A stretch of 64,000 nucleotides of DNA from Microthyrium microscopicum (GCA_010405405.1 MU004233.1:2644539-2708538), one strand, 5' to 3'. Positions 1 through 12,585 are shown, numbered from the stretch's first letter. Notes: generated by a model not told the origin, from the sequence alone. Translations and numbers: made by a program.

Positions 1-2195
1 AAGATCGATGCGATCACTATGGCAGAGCTTGGTCAAAAATCCACAGGAAACACTAAACGATCAATTTGATGTCATCATGCGAGACTTGCTCAAACACGTT
101 CTTGGCCGAGAATGGCGAGCAAGAGAAGCCTCTTGTCGAGCCATCGCAGACCTGATCCAAGATCGTAAGTTTGAGAGATATGAGAAGTATATGGATGAGA
201 TTTGGACTTGTTGTTCTAAGGTCATGGACGACATCAAAGGCTCTGTCCGTGAAGCAGCCAAGGGCCTCTCCCGCACTCTTACTGCCATCTTGGTTCGCAA
301 CTTGGAGACTGGTGAGCCATCCAAGGCACTTCTGGGAATGCTTGGACATACCATTCCATTCTTACTTGATCCTGCCCGAATCGATTCAGCAGCAGAGGAC
401 GTGAAAGCTTGGTCAGTTTCTACACTGCTCACCATCATCAAAAAGAGCAAAGGGTCTGTTCTCGAGGAATGGATCCCTCTCCTACTAGAATCATTCATCA
501 CACTATTCAGTTCTCTCGAACCAGCAGCAGTCAACTATCTCCACCTCAACGCAGCAAAATACAACACCACCGCATCAGAAATCGACGGCATGCGTCTCCA
601 AGCCACAAGACAAAGTCCGCTGATGGAAGCACTCGAGACACTTCTTGACATGCCATACAAGAACCCTGATACACCCAACAAAATCATCATCGTCGTTGAG
701 CAATCTATGCAACGCATGATCGGCATGCCTTCATTGACGGCTACTAGTCGTATCATAGTCACCATGTTTGTCCGCCATCATGCTCGATATAAGGAGTTCG
801 CAGACAGACTGTTGACCGGTATTCGAAAGCCATTGACGGATCGAAACGATACTGTTTCCAGCTCTTTTGCTTATACGGTTGGGTATATTGCTCGCTGGGC
901 TTCGGACCAGGAAATCAAAAAGATTGCTGATTATGGCGTCAAGCTTTGGCGTACGTCTGAAGCAGATAGACATCGAGAGGTGGGTGCGGAGATCTTCCAG
1001 GCTATCTCTAAGCAGGCATCTGAGAAATTTGCTGGCTTGTCCGGGTATCTGTTGCCTTTTGTGTTCGTGGGTAAGCATGATGATCAGGAAAGCGTCAAGG
1101 AGATTTTCTCCAAGACCTGGAGTGATAGCACTAGTGGCTCGAGAGTCATTATGCTTCATCTGACTGCTATGGTTGAGCTGGCTTCTACTATGCTCGATGA
1201 TCCAAAGTGGGCGATGAAGCATGCTGGAGCTAGAGCGATTGCTGAAGCAACCGATGTGATCGCCGGGCTAGACGCTCTCGTTGCGCCTGAAGAAGCTCCA
1301 AAGGTCTGGCCTGCGCTGGCCAAGGCACTGGGTGGAAAGACATGGGAAGGCAAGGAGGTTGTTCTCCAAGCCTTTGGCAAATTCGTTGAAAAAGTAGCAC
1401 CCTTTTGGCAGAAAGATCCGGCCGTTGCTTCTGAGATGACCAAGGCAAGTTCCTTATACTTAAAGTTTTGCGTATTCACTAATCAATAGTTTAGATCATG
1501 CTGCGAGAAGCACGACGCCAAAATCGTGACTATCAGCGACACTCTTTCCCGGTCCTGGGGCAATTCGCTGGTGCTCGTACAGATCTCGATCTAGGCGAGC
1601 AAGTACTAGAAATCGTATCACCCCTCGTCGATGATTTGGTGTCCGCTGAAGACTCTATGGATGTCGATGGCGAAGACAAAGTCAAAGATATCGTTCGTGA
1701 TGACTTGCTAGCCGGCGCGATCACATCTTCAGCGAAATCCTTCAAGTCGACAGTGATCAAGGACAACGGTTTGTGCCATTCCAGAACACTTCATGGTCTA
1801 GCTAACACATCCCAGACTTCGCCCCTAGATTCATGTCCTTCCTCGACATGGCCGTCAAAGCCAACTCCGTTCAAAGCAGACATGTCTCCATATCTCTCTT
1901 CGAAGTACTGGAACCTCTATTGAGCTCCATCGATACTTCCAGAGCCGATCTACTCAAGTCAAAGGAGTCTCAGATCGCTTCAAGACTCAAGGTTCTTCTA
2001 TTCAAACCTCAGTATGCCTCTTATGGCGCAGACACCAAACTCAAGCGCGCCAAAGCGATCCACGCGGTAGCGAAGATTCCGTCAAAGAGTTTAGGTAAAG
2101 CGGTATTGGAGGAATCGCTAGGTTCTGAGGCAAAGTCCGAGCCTACGGATGCTGTAAGAGAAGAGCTTTTTAAAGCTGTCAAAGCTATCGAGTGA
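1..2195 (+). CDS. ECM29: Proteasome adaptor Ecm29, 3' part (HEAT repeats); introns 1445-1494 (GC-AG) and 1769-1815
   Basis: Motifs W-R-x-REASCRAIADL and DDIKGSVR, LEPAAVNYL resemble Ecm29. Both introns have CTAAY branch sites and join the three ORFs in frame. Confidence 0.9.
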
Positions 2196-3139
2196 AAGTA
2201 AGATTAGTGTGGTTGATATAATACCTTTGTAGGCTTTAGGTTGAATTGAAACAGCGTTCATGTACGAGAAGGAAGTCAATGCTATGCTGCAGTGTTATCT
2301 CAGCACCATCTGTAAATCAATTAGCGTGATAGCCCTGCCATGCTGTTCAATGTTTCCTACTCATCTCGAGGTTGATTCATCATCCACCGCAGCCGCCAAT
2401 AATCACGGGCCATGGCCATTGATTGGTGGCTGCCCGACTTTAGCCTGAACGCTGATAATGTCACTAATACCGCTTTTCCTGTAGTTCTGAATTCACCTGG
2501 AAGGGTAAAGTCCAAATCAGAAAATGTTTCAAGATGACTTAGGTAGCCCGTTGACCAAAATTTGACCTACTCCAGCAACCATTATTATTCTTACCAAAAC
2601 CTTCAAGCGGACCAAGAAAACCCATTTCAAACACACGACGCAAATGCGAAATTCCTGGTTTCAGGGAGCTATGGCTAAGTATGATAGCATATTGGTCGCC
2701 GTGGAGCGTGGAGGAGCGAGAGAGAAGCCTGCAAGGATGAGGTCTAATTCAGCGAATAGCTAGCTTAAGATGGCATAGTATAGTATCAATAATGCTAGTT
2801 ACGCTACTTAATTAAGTGTTGATATTTCCCGGACTAGAGATGAATCGCAGTGACCAAGGCGAATTTTGCCTCGCATTCGCCCTAGACTCGCCGTACAATG
2901 AAACTTTATTTCAACTTCATAGAGCATCCGTACGAGCTTTGAATACACAAGTTCTCACGTCTTGACATTCAGTACTTGTCTTTGATGAAACTGATGTGAC
3001 ATATATAGCGAAACTTCTCAGTCCAACCAGTCTTACCGGCCTCCAGAAGCCAAGACTGTAATCCAGTCAATCTTTGTGACTTGGATCAGACGACCTCGGT
3101 GTGCAAACGCTCGTCGCCTACTTTTCTCCAGTCAAAACT

Positions 3140-4185
3140 ACATGGGGCTGTTAACAACTCTGTCATACATCGTACGAGCCATTTTGAAACCCCCATCATC
3201 CGTGCCATGGACTATTGATAGTTGACTCCCACCTTTTCACAAGGGATGATGGCGGCATGCCTGACCAAGTAAATTATGATCGTGCCATACGATCGAGGGG
3301 TGTTCAGGAATGCATATTGGCTCCATATTCATTCCTGTCGTACTCGCTGTCGAGCTCACACCGCCTCAATCCAAGCTGTTTCGAAGAAAAAAATCCCGCC
3401 GCGGGAACCCGCCAGGGGTTCTTTCTGCCAGCGAATGCGTCCAGAAAACATCCCTTGAAAAGGCGTTGAGACTGGAGCACATGCCCCGATACCGTAGGTC
3501 TTGCCGTGCCATGGAAAAAAAGGACCCCTTGAATGCAAAGTGTTGTTGTGGATTTCGTCTGATGAACCAACAAAGAAAATTCATGTTCGTGGATTCGGAC
3601 ACAGGACCGAGAGACGGTAGAAGCCGCAGACTAAGCTACGGGAACGGAAAGCGGAAGAGGTTCCCCGGCGCTTGAAATCAGTCGAGGGGTGTTCAAACAG
3701 GTCACAGGCTGGCCTCTGCGGACCGCATGGGCGGTTAACGAGGTTGGGTCGCGGGTCTCAAAGAATGATAATCGCTTGTAACTGGTGCCAGCAAAACACG
3801 CGCTGGAGGGCGGGTCTATCCGTCGTCCGTCCAACATACCTCTTTGGACCCCGAAGTGAACGACAGGATTGACCATTGACTGCAGCACAACACACACAAC
3901 TTCTCTGTGGCGGTTGGAAAGTCTGAGACAAGTTGACAAGGAAGCGAGATGCAAACTGGCCATTATAACGGCTTTCGCGAGCTGCTCGGTGGCCTCTTCT
4001 TTTAGCCCACGCGACTTTTTCGATCCAGAGGTTCAAGTCTTGTCGATACGAGCTGTAGGTACTAGCGACTTTGAAGGTACAATTCGTACATCAAATATCC
4101 CTCCACATGTCCCCAGCTCATCTCATTTGATCTCCTAGTAGTAGTGGCCCCCTCCATCCACGTAACTTGGCCGATATGTACATCG
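3140..4185 (+). ncRNA. Candidate structured ncRNA (unclassified)
   Basis: Nested complementary segments with + strand G-U pairs, TATATA at 3002, no credible ORF, located between convergent genes. Confidence 0.35.
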
Positions 4186-5686
4186 CCGCCCAAATCAACA
4201 GAGGCTAATGCAGCAAAATTCCCACACCACCATCAACCACTTTATTTTGTGTCAGAATACTCCAAACCCTTGCCTTTCCACAAACTGTGAGGCAAGATAG
4301 AAGAGCCGAATTGAAAAAGTGCACAGAAAGGAAGATAACATTCAGGCCTCCTCATCAGGCCCCTTCACCGCCCGCCGTCAATCGGAAACTTTCTTCAAAG
4401 ATCCTTGATTCTTGCATTTGTGTGTTGGCCCATTTGGCCGCGTCCAACGCCATAGCCGCCAGAAAATTCCCAAAAAAAAAGAAGATGAATGACCAACTCT
4501 CCCAAAGAAAATGAAAAAGCGGCTGGTTTTTGGCGCTATGCTCTGCGAAATGCTAACATCCTATCCACTAACCAGACAAATCGTCTCTGTTACACAGCAC
4601 AAGTACACTTCGAGAAGACACACTGGACCGTGCAGCTCAAGTGACGCCTACATTTCCAATGAGATGTCGACCATTTTTGTCCAAACTACCAGAAATAGAA
4701 ATGTACATTGTCTCGGAAAACGACCCAATCCATAGACTTGGAAAGCGGGTGCCTTATCCGAGTCATTTGTGTACATCAAGTGCAAGTTACACAGATTCAG
4801 AGAAAGACTACACAACGTCGTTCAGAACATAGAGTACATCCACAACAAATACCCGCGATATCAATGACCAAGGGCGAAAGCAGTTGACCAGTTCAACATG
4901 CAAGCCTCTCTCGCCTACAGTACTCTGCTATTACTTTCTTAGTTAGCAGAAGGATTCACCAAGTTTTGCTGCTAATGTCTGTGCAACCGATGTGATAGAG
5001 TAGCTGCATGCCCCACACCTAACCGCCAGTTTACACTATCAAAATTTCGAATCCCCACCCGCGAATTCAAGTCAACGACACGACGAATTGTTGAGAGAAT
5101 TGACTTGATATTCCCATTAATCCATTCCAGGTCTAAGCCCCACTGGTCAATTGCCAATTAGTTCGGACAAGGCCGGTCCCATACCGCTGGGTCCATCTAA
5201 GTAAGGTAGAGTAGTAGCTAAGGCCTATTTCGCTTTTATTCCTCGCTCGTCAGCCCACTGATAAAAATGCAATAATCCCAAACAGTCTGCGTGCTTCTGC
5301 AGCCTGTGTCCCCGGGATCACTCAGCACCGAGGCCCTCCAGAAAGTGAAAGGAAAAAAACAACAATCCCGGTTTTTGCTCCAATGGCACTGGCCAATATC
5401 CCATCAATTGTCCATCTGATCGCTTGACCAGCCAGAAAGAACCTCGTCATCCAGTATTTTGTGCAGAAAGACATTGCAGTCGTGTTTTTTTTCCCGCTTT
5501 AACTGGTGTTGATCGAAAGCATTTCCCAGTTAAACGCGGCATAAACCGACCAGCCATGATTTGCAGAAAATCATCCGCCGTTGTGCTTTTTTAAACCAAT
5601 TGACTCTTTTCTCTGATCCGAGCTAAAGCGTTCGTAGAGTGCATGTGGGCAATTATAGCCGACTTCAAATCGTGGCTTTTTCCTGT

Positions 5687-7358
5687 TCAAACAAACCAAG
5701 CTCTTCCCACTAGCATACACGCAACGATCATCAACCCAAGCGCCAACGTACTCTGCATGCAGGTTTCGGTCCGGAATGGCCAGAATCGTGGCAGCCGTGA
5801 TAGCAGATTGGATCGGCCTTGACTGAGCCATTCCCAGAGAGGCCAACTTGGTCGTTCGGTACCAGAGACTTTGCGAATAATCTTGGCAGGGCTTCCATAT
5901 GCGAGATGATATGCTGGTATATCCTTCATACCAGTCAGCTGGATAGATTTTCTCCAAAAAAAAAAACAAGGCCCGCAACGAAGGGGAAATTTTGGAGCAA
6001 AAAGAGAAAACGAGACAAGGGGGGTGGGATCCCTTGGTTAAGGATTATGGTCGAAAGACCAGATTCTCCCAAATAAATCCCACGAGACAAGGCTGAGATC
6101 GTAGCAAAGTGTATTGGGAGTGTGATACGAGTTTGTATGGTAGTACCAGGGAGTGAACTTTGACGGATGTACGAGATCACGCCGCACCCTCCCCTTGGCA
6201 ACATGACAGACGGGTACTTGCCGCGAATAGGGAAATGGGAGAAAATTGAAGAGGGAATTATGCAGGATGGAAATCCAGAAAACTCACCTTAGTAATAAGG
6301 CTATTTGCGCCAATGACGCAGCCTTTACCAACATTAACACCTCCGAGAATGGTAACATGCCCTCCTATCCAGCAGTCGTCCTCGATCGTGACATCCATTC
6401 CGAAGCTGGGAGCACCTGCAGGTCCATTACGAAGCGTATGGTCTGGAACATGGGTCAGCGGTGAGGTTGACAAGACACAGATCAAAGAAATATCGAAGAC
6501 ATATCAGAAGGGTAGGAATTAATATTCCAGATTGACGCTTGGGAAGCAAGGATGTGTGATGTGCTGCAAGCAATGGATCAATCTGCAAGAAATGATTCAA
6601 ACAGACCAATGAACCTAAACAAAATCCCCGCAAAAGGGAAAAAAGGTGCAAGGCAAAAAGCAAAACACCAAGGTCTGTCAAATGTTGCTCGCGAGATCCT
6701 AATTCGACTTACCAAGTGGATGACCAACGGCATATATTGAAAAGTCTGGGCCGATCAAGCAACGTTCGCCGATCCGAACGCTTCGTACTGGAGTGTCGAG
6801 GATTTTGCAACCTCTGTTGATGAAGGTAGATGTCGCAATGTCAACACATGAACCATAGTCAACGTGGAGAGGCGGTTTGATGTAAGGGGCGAGCCCTTGA
6901 CCTGGGAACCGCTTGGGTTGAGGAAAAGTATCCGACGGCGCAGTTGAGGCTGGAGTCGAGGTCGTTGACTCGCTGCACTCTGAACTGGGGTCTGATGTCG
7001 CGGCATCGGGAGAGCTTCCGGCGGCAGGGAGGTTCAAGGCTGGCAGTGGGGAAGCCAGTGGAGGAGTGGACAGTGTTGGTCCAGCTTTGAACTGCAGCTG
7101 GGATTGGCCCGCGTTGATGATACTGTATTGGTGAGCTGGTTAGCATTTGGACACGTCTAGAGACAAGGCAGCTGCACTGCTGCAGATGGATCTATGGAAG
7201 CCTTGAACTTACGCGTGGTAGAGAGCTGCACGCTGCTCGGCGGATGCCTCTTCACCCTGTGAGTTGTAGTCTTGACATGCAATGGCGGCACGTAGCCTTG
7301 CAGCGCGGTAGTCCTGGTTGCCGGCCGGGAATTCGGTTCTCTGTTTGTAAGGTGCCAT
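5687..7358 (-). CDS. Maltose/galactoside O-acetyltransferase-like LbH hexapeptide protein; introns 7123-7212, 6443-6712, 5924-6287
   Basis: Spliced product contains PPLHVDYG, FINRGCKILD, VTIEDDCWIGGHVTILGGVNVGKGCVIGANSLITKDIPAYHLAYGSPAKIIR. Splice phases checked. Confidence 0.88.
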
Positions 7359-7973
7359 GGAAGATGATTTGTAGATCACCGAGGCACGGAGAGGAAGGTA
7401 ATGTATAGCTATACGAGTGTGGAATGGCGAAGTTGTGTGGCCTTTTGGGCGCAATGCGATTTTTATAGGATTTGAGTAGTACAGCGGTGAAAGGAAAGGC
7501 AACACTTGGAATGGGATAATGTAACAGTTTCAATGCCAAGTAAAAGAACCGACTAGTGTCGTAGAGAGTAAGTAGTTTGCAGTAAATAGCAAGATGGTGA
7601 ATGCGGATAGCTTTGAAGATACGGTTGGGGAAAGGCCTCTACTAAATGTGAGCGTTTGATAGCCGGAATTGAACCCCTTGATCTGCTGGCCACTGTTCTT
7701 TGCTCTTTGCTGTTCCTTGGTGCGGCACTATGGGCAGCGGGCCGTACAGTACATTACAGAGGTACTGCGAGACAGCCTCGTGCATATCAGCCATGAGATG
7801 TCCGCTAAAGGGTCTAAGACGATCGACTATTAGTCTCTCCCTTGCCGAACTTGGATCTCTAGTCTACTCACCCAACATTTGTAAATTTCATTTATACCGG
7901 CCTCAATCCGCGTATCTCTTGCCTGCACGCAGTTGCCGAAGATCCTCTTGGTTTCTCTTTTTTTTATCCTTGT

Positions 7974-9487
7974 TCATCGTGGAACCATCTGATCTATCTG
8001 TACTCTCTTGTCTTCACCGGCACTGCCAATTCCTACCTCTTTATCCCAGAATACCGAGAAAACTTTGATGCCGTCTCCCGCTACTTTACGCTCGTCGTTT
8101 GCAATGCTCTCTCGTCGAATGACGTAGACACTTTCGCAAACTTGCCCAGTTCCTCCCACCGCAAGACCAGATGCTGATTTCCCATCCATTCGAACACTTC
8201 GTAAATCCCAGATTCTGCAAGTGCCATCGTGACTTGCACTGACAAGCCCCCAAGGCTTTTCTGGCTCAGCCGCAGCGCTGACGATTGCACCGGCATGTCC
8301 TCGGAGGGTCAACCCGGTAACATCTCTTACATCAACACGAGGGTCAATCATGGCAATATGTCTAGCGCTAGTACCTGTAGCAAGTAACCCGAGATCCGGC
8401 ATTTCGGTAACGCATAGTAATGGATTGAGAAGGCGGCGGGTTGACACTTCGGCTCCAGTAACTAGATCCCATGTAACAAGGGTTTGATCCCACGAGGTAG
8501 AATAGCCAACCGTTGAATCTTTGGCAGAAAAGATGGCACCACTGACAGGACCAGTATGTCTTTTCAATAGGCTGAGAGGTCCTCGTTGTGGACCAGGCTG
8601 AAAGGCTGCTGATTGTTCAAGTTTCCTCCGTTTGGCTGCCCCAGGTAATGCACTTGGAAGCAGGGAATCGGGCGGCTGGGGACCTTCCGACTTCCGCGTA
8701 GACCATAGACCAACTGTGTGGTCTGAGGATCCAGATAGTATGCGAGAAGAGGGAGCATGCACAGAAATGCTGTCGACGCTCGATCGGTGGCCATAGAGGT
8801 CGAGAATTGGTGTAAAAGTACCTGAAACTTGCATCGAACCACCAGTGACACCATTTTCTTCGTATTTCCAGACACGCACGACTCTGTCACTGCCAGCAGA
8901 GACGATTTTGGATGTGGTCAGGAAACAGGCCGCATTGATCGGTTGGCCGGATGTGGGCTTGGAAACGGCAAGTAAATCCGAAGATTTTGACCACATTCGA
9001 ATAAGACCATCATAGCTAGCGGATAGAATTCTAGGATCTTTGATGGGAGAAGATGTGCCATCCTGATCCTGTAACAAGACTGACGATGTTTGTGAGACTA
9101 CATCGACAGCCGAGATCCAGTCCTCGTGCTCAAAAGAGACGACATGCGAGGGTGGAATCAAGGCCCTAACGTACTCGACTGAAAGAGTAACTTCGGAAGA
9201 GATGCCATTGGCTGTTAGAAATTCGTCGATGGTAGTGCGCAGGAATTGACCGTTGATCAAAAACTCAAATGGGATAGGCTTTTCATTTTCCAATAAATTG
9301 TTGACAAGAGTTGAAAGAGCAATTCTCCGGAGGCCTTACATGAAGTTAGGAAACTTAGCGTCATCAAAGAGATAGGAGGAGACATACCGGTGGACACAAG
9401 AATTGGGCCTGTATTCTCTGGTAACTTGATGGTTACGTCTGGGTCGCGCGACTCCAGCTGGATTCGGATTTGAGCGGTTTTGTCCAT
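7974..9487 (-). CDS. YTM1: Ribosome biogenesis WD40 protein Ytm1 (NLE domain + WD repeats); intron 9335-9387
   Basis: LRRIALSTLVNNLLENEKPIPFEFLINGQFLRT and FEHEDWISAVD followed by WD repeats. Confidence 0.95.
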
Positions 9488-9946
9488 GCTTTTGATGTTA
9501 TCTTCCCCGGTTCCACAATTACTAGCAACCAGTCTGACAGTGGTAAGGGGTGTCCGTGAAGATCAGATGGGATAAGACGGCGACAAAGTTGCGCTTGGAT
9601 ACTGAGTGTGTTCAAATTCTCAAGATGGTCGTGATATTTTTTTGCAGGGGTCAAAAATGGGCAACGCTGGATGACGTTAGGCGCGCTAGGAGGCACGTGC
9701 GCTAGTTGCTACAAGGCTGGATCTGGCCATAAGGCTGGCAGCACACGATTGTCCAGACAGACACGACCGTCAATGGCGAACAAGAAATTCAGGTACAAGA
9801 CGAGGGAGCTTTAATGATTCGCAGCACACAATGGTTGCAGCCACAATTATTAAGTCATTGCCGCAGCTCATAAAATGTTATACCAGCACATCTAATTTAC
9901 AATTTCACCGCTCGTCAAGCCTTCATGTCTTGTTGCTTCGGACCTT

Positions 9947-12585
9947 CTATGCCCGTTTAATAACACGAATCGCCTCCTTCCGATGACTAGAATCCGCAAA
10001 CAGCGCCTGCACCAAATCCACAACCTCATCCGCCGAAAACTCCAAACTCAGCTCGCCTTCCGTCCACAAATACTTGATATCCGCCAACGACGCCTCCAAG
10101 ATCTCGCCCAGATACCTAAAACGGAACCAATCTGGAGTATACACATGCACCAAATTGCTCGTCTCTTCCTCACCATCATTTGTGGGCGAGTCGAATAGGT
10201 CTGATAGACCAGCGACATTGTCACAGAAGGATTTTAGCATCTTACTCTGCTCTTCTGAGATGCCTGATGGATCGTCTGCGCGCTCTAACACATCTGAGGA
10301 CATCTGTTTGAGTAGCGTGCCTACTAGGCTACCGAGGCTTTGTAGACGGTCGGAATTGCTGAGGATGTTGGTCCAGGAGCGGTCGACATCGCGGACGCGG
10401 TTGATGGCATCTTGAATTATAGCGCTGTACTGCGCGGCGTTGAGGGGTGCGGTGCAATTGATGAAGCCGGACGTGGAAGAAAGGATGTCGGAGAGTATGG
10501 TGCGTTGCGAGTCCATTTCGCGACCGTAAGCACGGCGGGAGTAGGGAAGAAGAGCGGCAATGTCAGAGTCGAAGGTGCGGAGACGTTTGCTGAGTGGGTG
10601 AGTAGTTGAGAGCCTGGAGAGCAGGGTGGAGAGTTGCGAGTGTAAATGGACAGAGTCGTTGTATATCAGCATGTTGCCGGCTGGTTCGCTGGTGTAATAG
10701 GTACTGGCAGTGGCGCGATACATGGCGAGTAGTAGGGTTGGTATGGTCGATAGGCCTAGTGTTGCGGGAGCAATGGTTGGTACGGGGAAGTCAGGGGATG
10801 ACAGTGTGCTGGCGTCGGAGATGATTTGGTTGATAAGGTCGATAATTCCATCTGGTATAGAAGTGACTGTGTAGTTTTCTCGGAGTGTGATCTCTTTCGT
10901 TGTAGGTTGTTGCTTATGTGCCTTTCCATTTGCTTTTGCTTTCGATGGTGATTTAGAAATTGCAGCGGGTTTTGCAGGCGACTTTTCTGCCTCGTCAGCT
11001 TCATCGCCATCGTCTCCCCATCCCCAGGCACCCGCTTCTTCATCTTCTTGAGTTTTCTCTTCGGCTTTTGGTCCTTTCGAAGTTTCTTCTGCAGCTGGTT
11101 CGTCATCCCAAGCACTAGTGTCTTCTTCTTCCACAGCTTCATTGCCTTGAGGTTCTTCCTCTTCTCCCCAGCCAGCATCCCATTCATCGTTTGTACCATT
11201 TTCAGGTGTTTCTTCTTCCAATGGCTGTTCGCTTGGATCAGCATACATCACATCATCACTAGACACTAGCTGCGTCTCTATTCTCTCAGCCATCTTTTGT
11301 CTCTTTATATTTTGATAGCACATCTCTCTCATATCCGCCAGAGCAACCTCCTTGCGTTTGGCCAGCCAGGTCTGCGGAATCTTCTTAAGCCACACAGCGA
11401 GGTCGGCATCGCTGGGCATGTCCACTTCCGATTTCGAAATGAAAAGCGATAGCTCTTCAACCTTCGTGGTAATTTCCTTGAAAGTTTCCAGATTCGTAAG
11501 TTTCAGGGGCATTGCCGGATCGAGCCAATTCGAGACGAGTTGAAGAATCAGTGAAGGTAGTATAGTGTCCAGAAGTTGCGCCGAAATTGATCGTGGTAGC
11601 GCCGTTGATATGAAGTTGACAATAGCGTAAATGTCATCAATCATATCCAACACCGAGCCCTCCTGTTCACTTTTCACCAACCGTATCTCACCCTCCCCTT
11701 TCTCGACTCTCCAGAAATTCTTGCCCTTCGACCGATTCATCCGTGGCCCAAGAACACTCGAATCCAATTCCCGATGCAACCTACTCACACACCCATCTCT
11801 AACCCCCAGCGTCCCCAACGCCTCAATAACAGTCTCCAAATCCATCGCCTCACTATCCTCCCTCTTAACAACAACCCGTCCACCATCAACATTAACCAAC
11901 CGCCCCCAAACACCCAACACCTCCTTCACAACCCCCTCCCTCACACTCCCCACCCGTCTCCCCAGCACCGCCACCGCCCTACTCTCCCCAATCCCCGCGC
12001 CATCCCTCCTCAACCCACCCACCACCATCTCCGCATTTAAAACCTTCTCCAACGCACCACCCAGCTCCTGTCCATCAAGCGCATTCCGCGCCCCATCAAC
12101 CAGCCCAGCCGCAACCTGCAAAGTATCCAAAACCCCTTCTAAACCGACACTAAACTCCAACTCCCTCTGCAGCAGCGCGACTTTGCCCGCCGCATCATGG
12201 ACGCGTGCGCCTAGACTTTTCGCGTGTTCGGCCGCTTCGACAATTGCGCGCGCAGATGAGCGGGAGTGGGCGATGGATGTTTGGAGGGCGGTGGCTTGGG
12301 TTAGCCAGGTATCAATTGATGGGGCGGAAGAGGATGAGAGGGTGCGGATTTCAGCCTTTTACACGCAAATTGTCAGCTTTCATGATACAAGTGCATGGAT
12401 AGAGAGAGGGGGGGTTGTGTATTTACTTTGACATCTTCTTCGGCTTTGCTGACGAGCTCGAGAATGGAGGGTATGTTGGTCGACGTCAGCGTGGTTGAGA
12501 CTGTCTGCTCATCGTCAGGGTATGCGCCGGTTTGGACGAATGTGAGGACAGAGGAGGCGACCGCTGAAGATGGGTCCGTCGACAT
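9947..12585 (-). CDS. Dsl1/ZW10-family retrograde tethering protein; intron 12356-12426
   Basis: Acidic Trp-rich lasso (WDAGWGEEE, AWGWGDD) and C-terminal ILEASLADIKYLWTEGELSLEF...LVQALFADS. Confidence 0.85.

Follow-up and report, generated by a model that had tools for sequence, protein, structure and literature searches.

The 64,000-nucleotide (nt) window of the Microthyrium microscopicum genome analysed here (GCA_010405405.1, MU004233.1:2644539-2708538) contains a gap of about 3.5 kb without long open reading frames (ORFs), on which two genes converge: ECM29, on the + strand, with its stop codon at 2193-2195, and an acetyltransferase-like gene on the minus strand, with its stop codon at 5687-5689. 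A preliminary description of this DNA proposed that positions 3001-4185, within the gap, form a large nested fold-back belonging to a structured non-coding RNA of the + strand. We find that the gap is transcribed, most simply as a single minus-strand RNA of about 3.2 kb or more, and that chance suffices to explain the nested pairings as well as the H box and the ACA. Since no frame of the RNA is a credible coding sequence and its folding does not exceed chance, the reading that we tentatively prefer, while placing it somewhat short of probable, is that of an independent long non-coding RNA (lncRNA) of the intergenic/antisense class, transcribed from the minus strand over the full length of the gap. 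The preliminary description was thus right that the gap is more than an empty spacer, and that a long RNA without a credible ORF comes from it; the strings it quoted are confirmed, but its strand, size, fold and family find no support.

The transcript data are the contigs of one public run from one study, labelled RNA by guess, which were aligned to window positions 1-10000; we take the run as RNA because nine introns, all with GT..AG or CT..AC ends, are missing from its contigs. One contig (contig 1, 9032 nt) covers positions 1-5492 with no differing letters. It lacks the two + strand introns of ECM29, and it also lacks two CT..AC stretches within the gap (joints 2309/2361 and 2494/2569). Both of these are introns when read on the minus strand, where each begins with GTAGG, ends with CAG and has a branch motif, CTAAT in one and CTGAT in the other. 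An assembled + strand read-through of ECM29 across 2310-2570 is not present among the contigs, none of which contains 2310-2360 or 2497-2570. In the depth table, the exon cover of the long contigs accounts exactly for every bin holding one of eight introns, with extra depth only at the ninth, a 364-nt intron of the acetyltransferase-like gene; as no DNA or unspliced contig lies over those eight introns, carried-over DNA does not account for the contigs in the gap. The transcript is well above the 200 nt that defines a lncRNA, being an unbroken contig over 2569-5492 joined to two spliced exons, and it is spliced in the manner of a messenger RNA (mRNA), with both canonical minus-strand introns removed.

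These two CT..AC (minus-strand GT..AG) introns are the only features in the gap that tell a strand and, as far as the contigs show, transcription of the + strand, which had been expected there, is not seen. Nor does the covered stretch, at about 3.2 kb or more, agree with the size of about 1.2 kb that had been proposed; the contig continues past 4185, and nothing near this position marks the end of an RNA. Unused intron-like patterns in the unspliced body are equally frequent on the two strands (2 vs 2) and do not indicate its strand, by a pattern that missed six of the nine known introns. We infer that one minus-strand molecule carries both splices together with 3001-4185, and that it has its own start.

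The same cover could come from a mosaic of overlapping transcripts of both strands, made up of a short spliced minus-strand RNA near 2.2-2.8 kb and one or more RNAs deeper in the gap, in which case the strand transcribed over 3001-4185 could be the +. Contigs merge at any 31-nt overlap, contig 1 does in fact merge the + strand ECM29 mRNA with exons spliced on the minus strand, and a TATATA is present at 3002. Such a mosaic is nonetheless improbable: it needs more transcription units than a single RNA does, the contig neither breaks nor branches between 2569 and 5492, and the + strand shows no fold signal either.

Each of the strings from which the fold-back had been drawn was located. All eight complementary pairs, the TATATA at 3002, the ACATCA at 4088 and the ACA at 4180 lie exactly where they had been reported, and CCCAGCTCA is found at 4112. 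As a structure, the nested fold-back is at chance level by stem count, chain depth, minimum free energy (MFE) and pairing probabilities. The 1185 nt contain 132 stems of at least 7 bp (with at most one G-U pair), compared with 130 ± 12 in 100 dinucleotide shuffles, and the longest chain of concentric stems numbers 11, compared with 12.2 ± 1.3, a value equalled or exceeded by 90 of the 100 shuffles; five other stretches of the window give chains of 11-15 by the same measure. The chain first described consists of six concentric helices, four of them of 7-8 bp, and is well inside the shuffle range. The MFE is -364.9 for the + strand (shuffles -367.2 ± 8.4; z +0.27, with 24 of 40 shuffles folding at least as well) and -383.4 for the minus strand (shuffles -386.3 ± 8.1; z +0.36, 26 of 40). 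A hand-drawn RNA fold of 1 kb is what any sequence of such length and composition offers.

The individual helices fare no better. Seven of the eight that were named have a pairing probability of at most 0.0001, and a fold with all eight forced reaches only -318.8, at a cost of 46 kcal/mol relative to the -364.9 of the unconstrained fold. The side arm alone has a z of -0.90, and the region of the 3' stem (4085-4185) a z of +0.21, 108 of 200 shuffles folding as well. The G-U pairs favour the + strand, as had been argued, only for the hand-picked helices; overall it is the minus strand that folds lower. Sliding windows of 120 nt over 2200-5679 have mean z values of +0.05 (+ strand) and -0.08 (minus strand). 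Of the local folds in the gap, the best is that of the minus strand at 3284-3376; it is not distinctive, as two 3.5-kb control stretches each contain one window with z ≤ -3 (minima -3.12 and -5.27). Separately, an exact 14-nt direct repeat, TCGAGGGGTGTTCA, is present at 3293-3306 and 3682-3695, 389 nt apart; by a naive estimate the chance of such a repeat in 3.5 kb is about 0.02, and its first copy lies within the fold at 3284-3376.

The gap was also compared with known RNA families. Rfam gives no match at the gathering score anywhere in the window and, with three sub-ranges searched at E ≤ 10, only NPPA-AS1_1 (E 5), NsiR1 (E 8.4) and mir-1468 (E 4.2), each scoring well under its cut-off; the small nucleolar RNA (snoRNA), telomerase and RNase P/MRP families for which an Infernal search had been suggested do not match even at this level. 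ARAGORN found no transfer RNA genes. The NsiR1 match falls on a G+C-rich hairpin followed by U7 on the minus strand at 3387-3434 (CCCCUGGCGGGUUCCCGCGGCGGGAUUUUUUU), which has the shape of a bacterial intrinsic terminator and is probably meaningless in a fungal RNA polymerase II transcript. A single C/D box candidate around 5380-5700 was weak, with a terminal stem of 2 bp, and was rejected.

An H/ACA-like layout had been read into the region, although the preliminary description could not build a full pocket. An H/ACA snoRNA is a small molecule of hairpin-hinge-hairpin-tail form, in which the hinge carries box H and the tail ACA, and the pocket in each hairpin pairs with both sides of the target uridine, over at least 8 bp in total (PMC6049503). 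The region resembles such RNAs only in that an ANANNA and an ACA occur with some stem in between. These strings are uninformative, because in 1185 nt there are 25 occurrences of ANANNA, 26 of ACA and 32 ANANNA...ACA pairs at a spacing of 60-110 nt. The differences are these: the proposed 5' arm, in place of a small hairpin, spans 3172-4089, some 900 nt, with its five outer helices at a predicted probability of about zero; the 3' stem is unstable; the ribosomal RNA match is a one-sided 9-mer inside a stem, and by our estimate chance alone would give a single such match to several kb of ribosomal RNA; and the transcribed strand is apparently the opposite one. The layout is not supported by this comparison, with the box strings ubiquitous, the z of its 3' stem positive and no snoRNA match in Rfam.

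The template of a fungal telomerase RNA is complementary to about 1.5 telomere repeats of the TTAGGG type. Of eight template hexamers sought in 2000-6000, six (CCCTAA, TTAGGG, ACCCTA, TAGGGT, GTTAGG and GGTTAG) were not found, and the other two, CCTAAC (5018) and CTAACC (4568 and 5019), occur only outside 3001-4185; matches to AACCCTAA with one mismatch number 27 in the window and none in the gap. Like the telomerase RNA of the Neurospora type, the gap RNA would be a long RNA polymerase II non-coding RNA that comes from what seems an intergenic gap and bears spliceosomal signals close to its 3' end. It differs in having neither a telomere-repeat template nor a match to the telomerase families of Rfam, and in that both of its introns are fully removed rather than used for 3'-end cleavage.

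A structured + strand RNA of about 1.2 kb, whether H/ACA-like or another large catalytic or scaffold RNA such as a telomerase RNA or an RNase P/MRP RNA, is therefore largely refuted and has become very improbable. The quoted strings do exist and the gap is transcribed, but the fold is at or below chance, the 3' stem is unremarkable among abundant box strings, Rfam offers nothing at E ≤ 10 beyond two chance matches (E 5 and E 8.4), the telomere-template hexamers lie only outside the region, and the polarity of splicing points to the opposite strand.

The coding capacity of the gap was examined in several ways. In the spliced minus-strand RNA the longest frame from an ATG is 110 amino acids (aa) and the longest stop-to-stop frame 133 aa. 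None of 57 open frames of at least 40 aa, taken from all six reading frames, reaches the Pfam cut-off (best E 0.0078), and the longest minus-strand frame, 3634-4032, has no homologue in a search of 5.8 billion clusters. A 131-aa + strand frame gave a match (E 9e-6, among 1.84 billion representatives) that was set aside as inflated by composition and repeats, a 27-residue basic stretch being matched seven times in a tandem-repeat protein. Codon log-likelihood scores of the four longest gap frames (at least 108 aa) are between -0.03 and 0.03; they agree with those of off-frame controls (0.009 ± 0.113, n = 132) and differ from those of real long frames (0.168 ± 0.057, n = 17).

It is accordingly unlikely, if somewhat less so than the mosaic, that the transcript is the mRNA of a small or lineage-specific protein, or the transcribed relic of a decayed gene. 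Candidate frames are that of 110 aa (3963-3631), one of 66 aa that crosses the splice junctions, and 4032-3307. The two short canonical introns are gene-like, the junction-crossing frame passes both joints without a stop, and only one stop interrupts minus-strand frame 0 over 242 codons; against these stand the lack of a Pfam domain in the 57 frames, the lack of a homologue for 3634-4032, the codon scores, and the presence, upstream of the 110-aa frame, of four or more other ATG frames 36-50 aa long. There is also no signature of repeat-induced point mutation (RIP) in the gap (TpA/ApT 0.69, vs 0.68 in the whole window) or other mark of a degraded duplicate, and by a rough estimate frames of such length are expected by chance at the local G+C content of 54-57%. 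The 242-codon frame, at 3307-4032 on the minus strand and interrupted at 3631-3633, has codon usage like that of non-coding sequence and, in its upstream half, no homologue; it is itself probably a product of chance at this G+C content, and could be a decayed frame.

The main competitor of an independent lncRNA, possible though less likely, is an isoform of the acetyltransferase mRNA extended at its 3' end by read-through, which would miss a poly(A) site near 5.49-5.55 kb, continue for 3.3 kb to the ECM29 terminator zone and splice two cryptic or relic introns on its way, with no separate gene involved. Such tandem transcripts are a large class in Fusarium, where 740 novel ones, 388 of them non-coding, are tabulated (Table 1 of PMC6094484). 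The gap RNA is on the same strand as the acetyltransferase-like gene, all 30 depth bins are covered, and cover is continuous from the gene into the gap. Moreover, the end of contig 1 at the edge of an A8/T8 run (5492) and the start of a second long contig (contig 2) at about 5546 look like graph branches around a 53-nt piece, and unlike a transcript start. Contig 2, from about 5546 to beyond 10000, joins two neighbouring genes of the same strand, a WD40/NLE-domain gene (open frame from 9497 to 7977, with Pfam matches to NLE and WD40) and the acetyltransferase-like gene; their transcripts therefore overlap or read through, and continuity of a contig is here no proof of a single transcript. Against read-through, the two long contigs are not joined, and both of the far-downstream introns are fully spliced and have good branch sites. 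An mRNA with exon junctions 3 kb beyond its stop codon should, besides, be a target of nonsense-mediated decay and rare.

Several of these observations, with some others, count against an independent lncRNA. The contigs, from one run of one study and without strand information, show neither strand, ends nor single-molecule continuity; the exact coincidence of the end of contig 1 with the T8/A8 edge is like a graph branch and not a transcription start, which favours read-through from the acetyltransferase-like gene; and contig 2 shows that neighbouring same-strand genes can be joined in this assembly. On the coding side, some short frames score as gene-like by codons (for example 0.165 for 4358-4552 on the minus strand), the frame that is open across both junctions (107 codons, 66 aa from its ATG) lay outside the homology searches, and the searches of large protein libraries covered two open frames.

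The closest known class is that of the fungal lncRNAs. Hundreds to thousands of intergenic, antisense and tandem non-coding transcripts with mRNA-like features have been described in Fusarium graminearum (PMC6094484), and the natural antisense transcripts and lncRNAs of Neurospora crassa are a further example (PMC3951366). Like those of Fusarium, the gap RNA is longer than 200 nt, lies between genes of annotated type, shows mRNA-like splicing and, within the tests made, lacks coding capacity; it is likewise convergent with a protein-coding gene, the 3' end of which it meets. No similar sequence was found elsewhere for the gap RNA, and according to that study this too is the rule for fungal lncRNAs, only 5 of the identified F. 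graminearum lncRNAs resembling lncRNAs of other eukaryotes (PMC6094484). The difference is that the gap RNA is known from contigs, and that its independence of the upstream same-strand gene is presumed. Either way, non-coding or read-through, it would be an unannotated transcript of a kind that is commonplace in fungi.

If the gap RNA is an independent lncRNA, its transcription by RNA polymerase II would start where the acetyltransferase-like gene ends or a little downstream of that point (about 5.49-5.66 kb) and run to 2571 without splicing; the introns at 2497-2570 and 2310-2360 would then be lost, and the transcript would end tail-to-tail on the 3' end of ECM29. The segment 3001-4185 would be an internal, unspliced part of this RNA. 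Its function, if any, would most likely lie in convergent transcription into the ECM29 terminator zone and in antisense overlap, and not in a folded RNA machine; any effect on ECM29 is hypothetical. A more specific version, in which the gap holds a dedicated regulatory lncRNA gene that tunes 3'-end formation or the mRNA level of ECM29 (a proteasome adaptor), with the fold at 3284-3376 and the two copies of the 14-mer (at 3293 and 3682) as protein-binding modules, we consider quite improbable. Regulation of ECM29 by convergent transcription, if true, would be a further example of a known mechanism and not a new one. For annotation, the value of the lncRNA reading is that a 3.5-kb 'empty' gap in a compact fungal genome would be explained by an unannotated, spliced and apparently non-coding unit of the opposite strand. 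Coordinates of all features are given in Table 1.

Table 1. Features of the convergent gap and its flanks, in window coordinates; the strand of the transcript parts is that indicated by the two gap introns.
Feature	Position	Strand	Basis and remarks
Last exon of the putative minus-strand RNA	2196..2309	-	Zone of contact or overlap with the ECM29 transcript at the 3' end of the latter; contig continuous from ECM29 exons (1815-2309)
Intron, 51 nt	2310..2360	-	GTAGGA...CTAAT...CAG; joint 2309/2361; removed in contig
Internal exon	2361..2496	-	134-136 letters between two contig joints
Intron, 74 nt	2497..2570	-	GTAGGT...CTGAT...CAG; joint 2494/2569 (cut +2); removed in contig
Long unspliced body (first or only large exon)	2571..5492	-	Contig 1 over 2569-5492, 0 other letters, 0 gaps; strand inferred from the downstream introns
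Region proposed as structured RNA	3001..4185		Internal part of the long unspliced exon; structure signal not above chance
Best local fold of the gap	3284..3376	-	Window 3280-3399, z -3.28, 0 of 200 shuffles
GGGAAC/GTTCCC hairpin	3640..3665		Sole named helix in the MFE fold, pairing probability 0.93; z -0.74 (+) and -0.90 (-), not unusual
Imperfect inverted repeat	5487..5545		Between the two long contigs; minus-strand fold z -3.17; carried by short high-depth contigs
ECM29, 3' part	1..2195	+	Pfam matches and contig joints; introns near 1443-1492 and 1768-1814
Acetyltransferase-like (hexapeptide-repeat) gene	5687..7358	-	Exons 7213-7358, 6713-7122, 6288-6442 and 5690-5923

The flanking genes and the gap were further characterized as follows. 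ECM29 was identified by Pfam matches to PF24492 (E 2.2e-43) and PF23731 (E 1.7e-6). The acetyltransferase-like gene, with a coding sequence running from 7358 to 5690, is given its putative family name from hexapeptide motifs read in its translations; its single exons have no Pfam match at E ≤ 0.01. No ATG frame between the two genes is longer than 121 aa, and nowhere else in the window is there so long a run of DNA (3653 nt) lacking open frames of at least 140 aa. Three other such stretches measure 2.7-3.0 kb. Within the window, the gap shows no sign of a repeat family, a possibility that the preliminary description had allowed for: repeats in the gap and window are short pairs only, and by blastn the gap has no match elsewhere in the window at E ≤ 1. 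In metagenome contigs, a search with an ECM29 exon matched 52 pattern stretches, none of them from a relative, and an exact 28-mer from the region had no match; a similarity index of the scanned DNA returned no look-alikes for 3001-4185, 696-7200 or 5470-5570.

The piece of about 53 nt between the two long contigs is prominent in the depth table, where its bin (5345-5678) has a summed contig depth of 3166.6, of which the long contigs explain about 484. The piece coincides with the imperfect inverted repeat at 5487-5545, which on the + strand is flanked by a T8 run and, further on, by a T6 run. Candidate explanations for this piece are a small RNA of high abundance, a short element that is repeated, and a pile-up from 3' ends or internal priming; contig depth being a poor measure, it is a lead only. 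Four of the 18 contigs aligned to this DNA are only 95-99% alike. The acetyltransferase-like gene has two long introns, 5924-6287 (364 nt) and 6443-6712 (270 nt), compared with 47-90 nt for seven other introns. The 364-nt intron carries extra depth (317.6 in bin 6013-6346, vs 160.9 expected from the spliced contig) and the 270-nt intron does not; the former is therefore retained or separately expressed.

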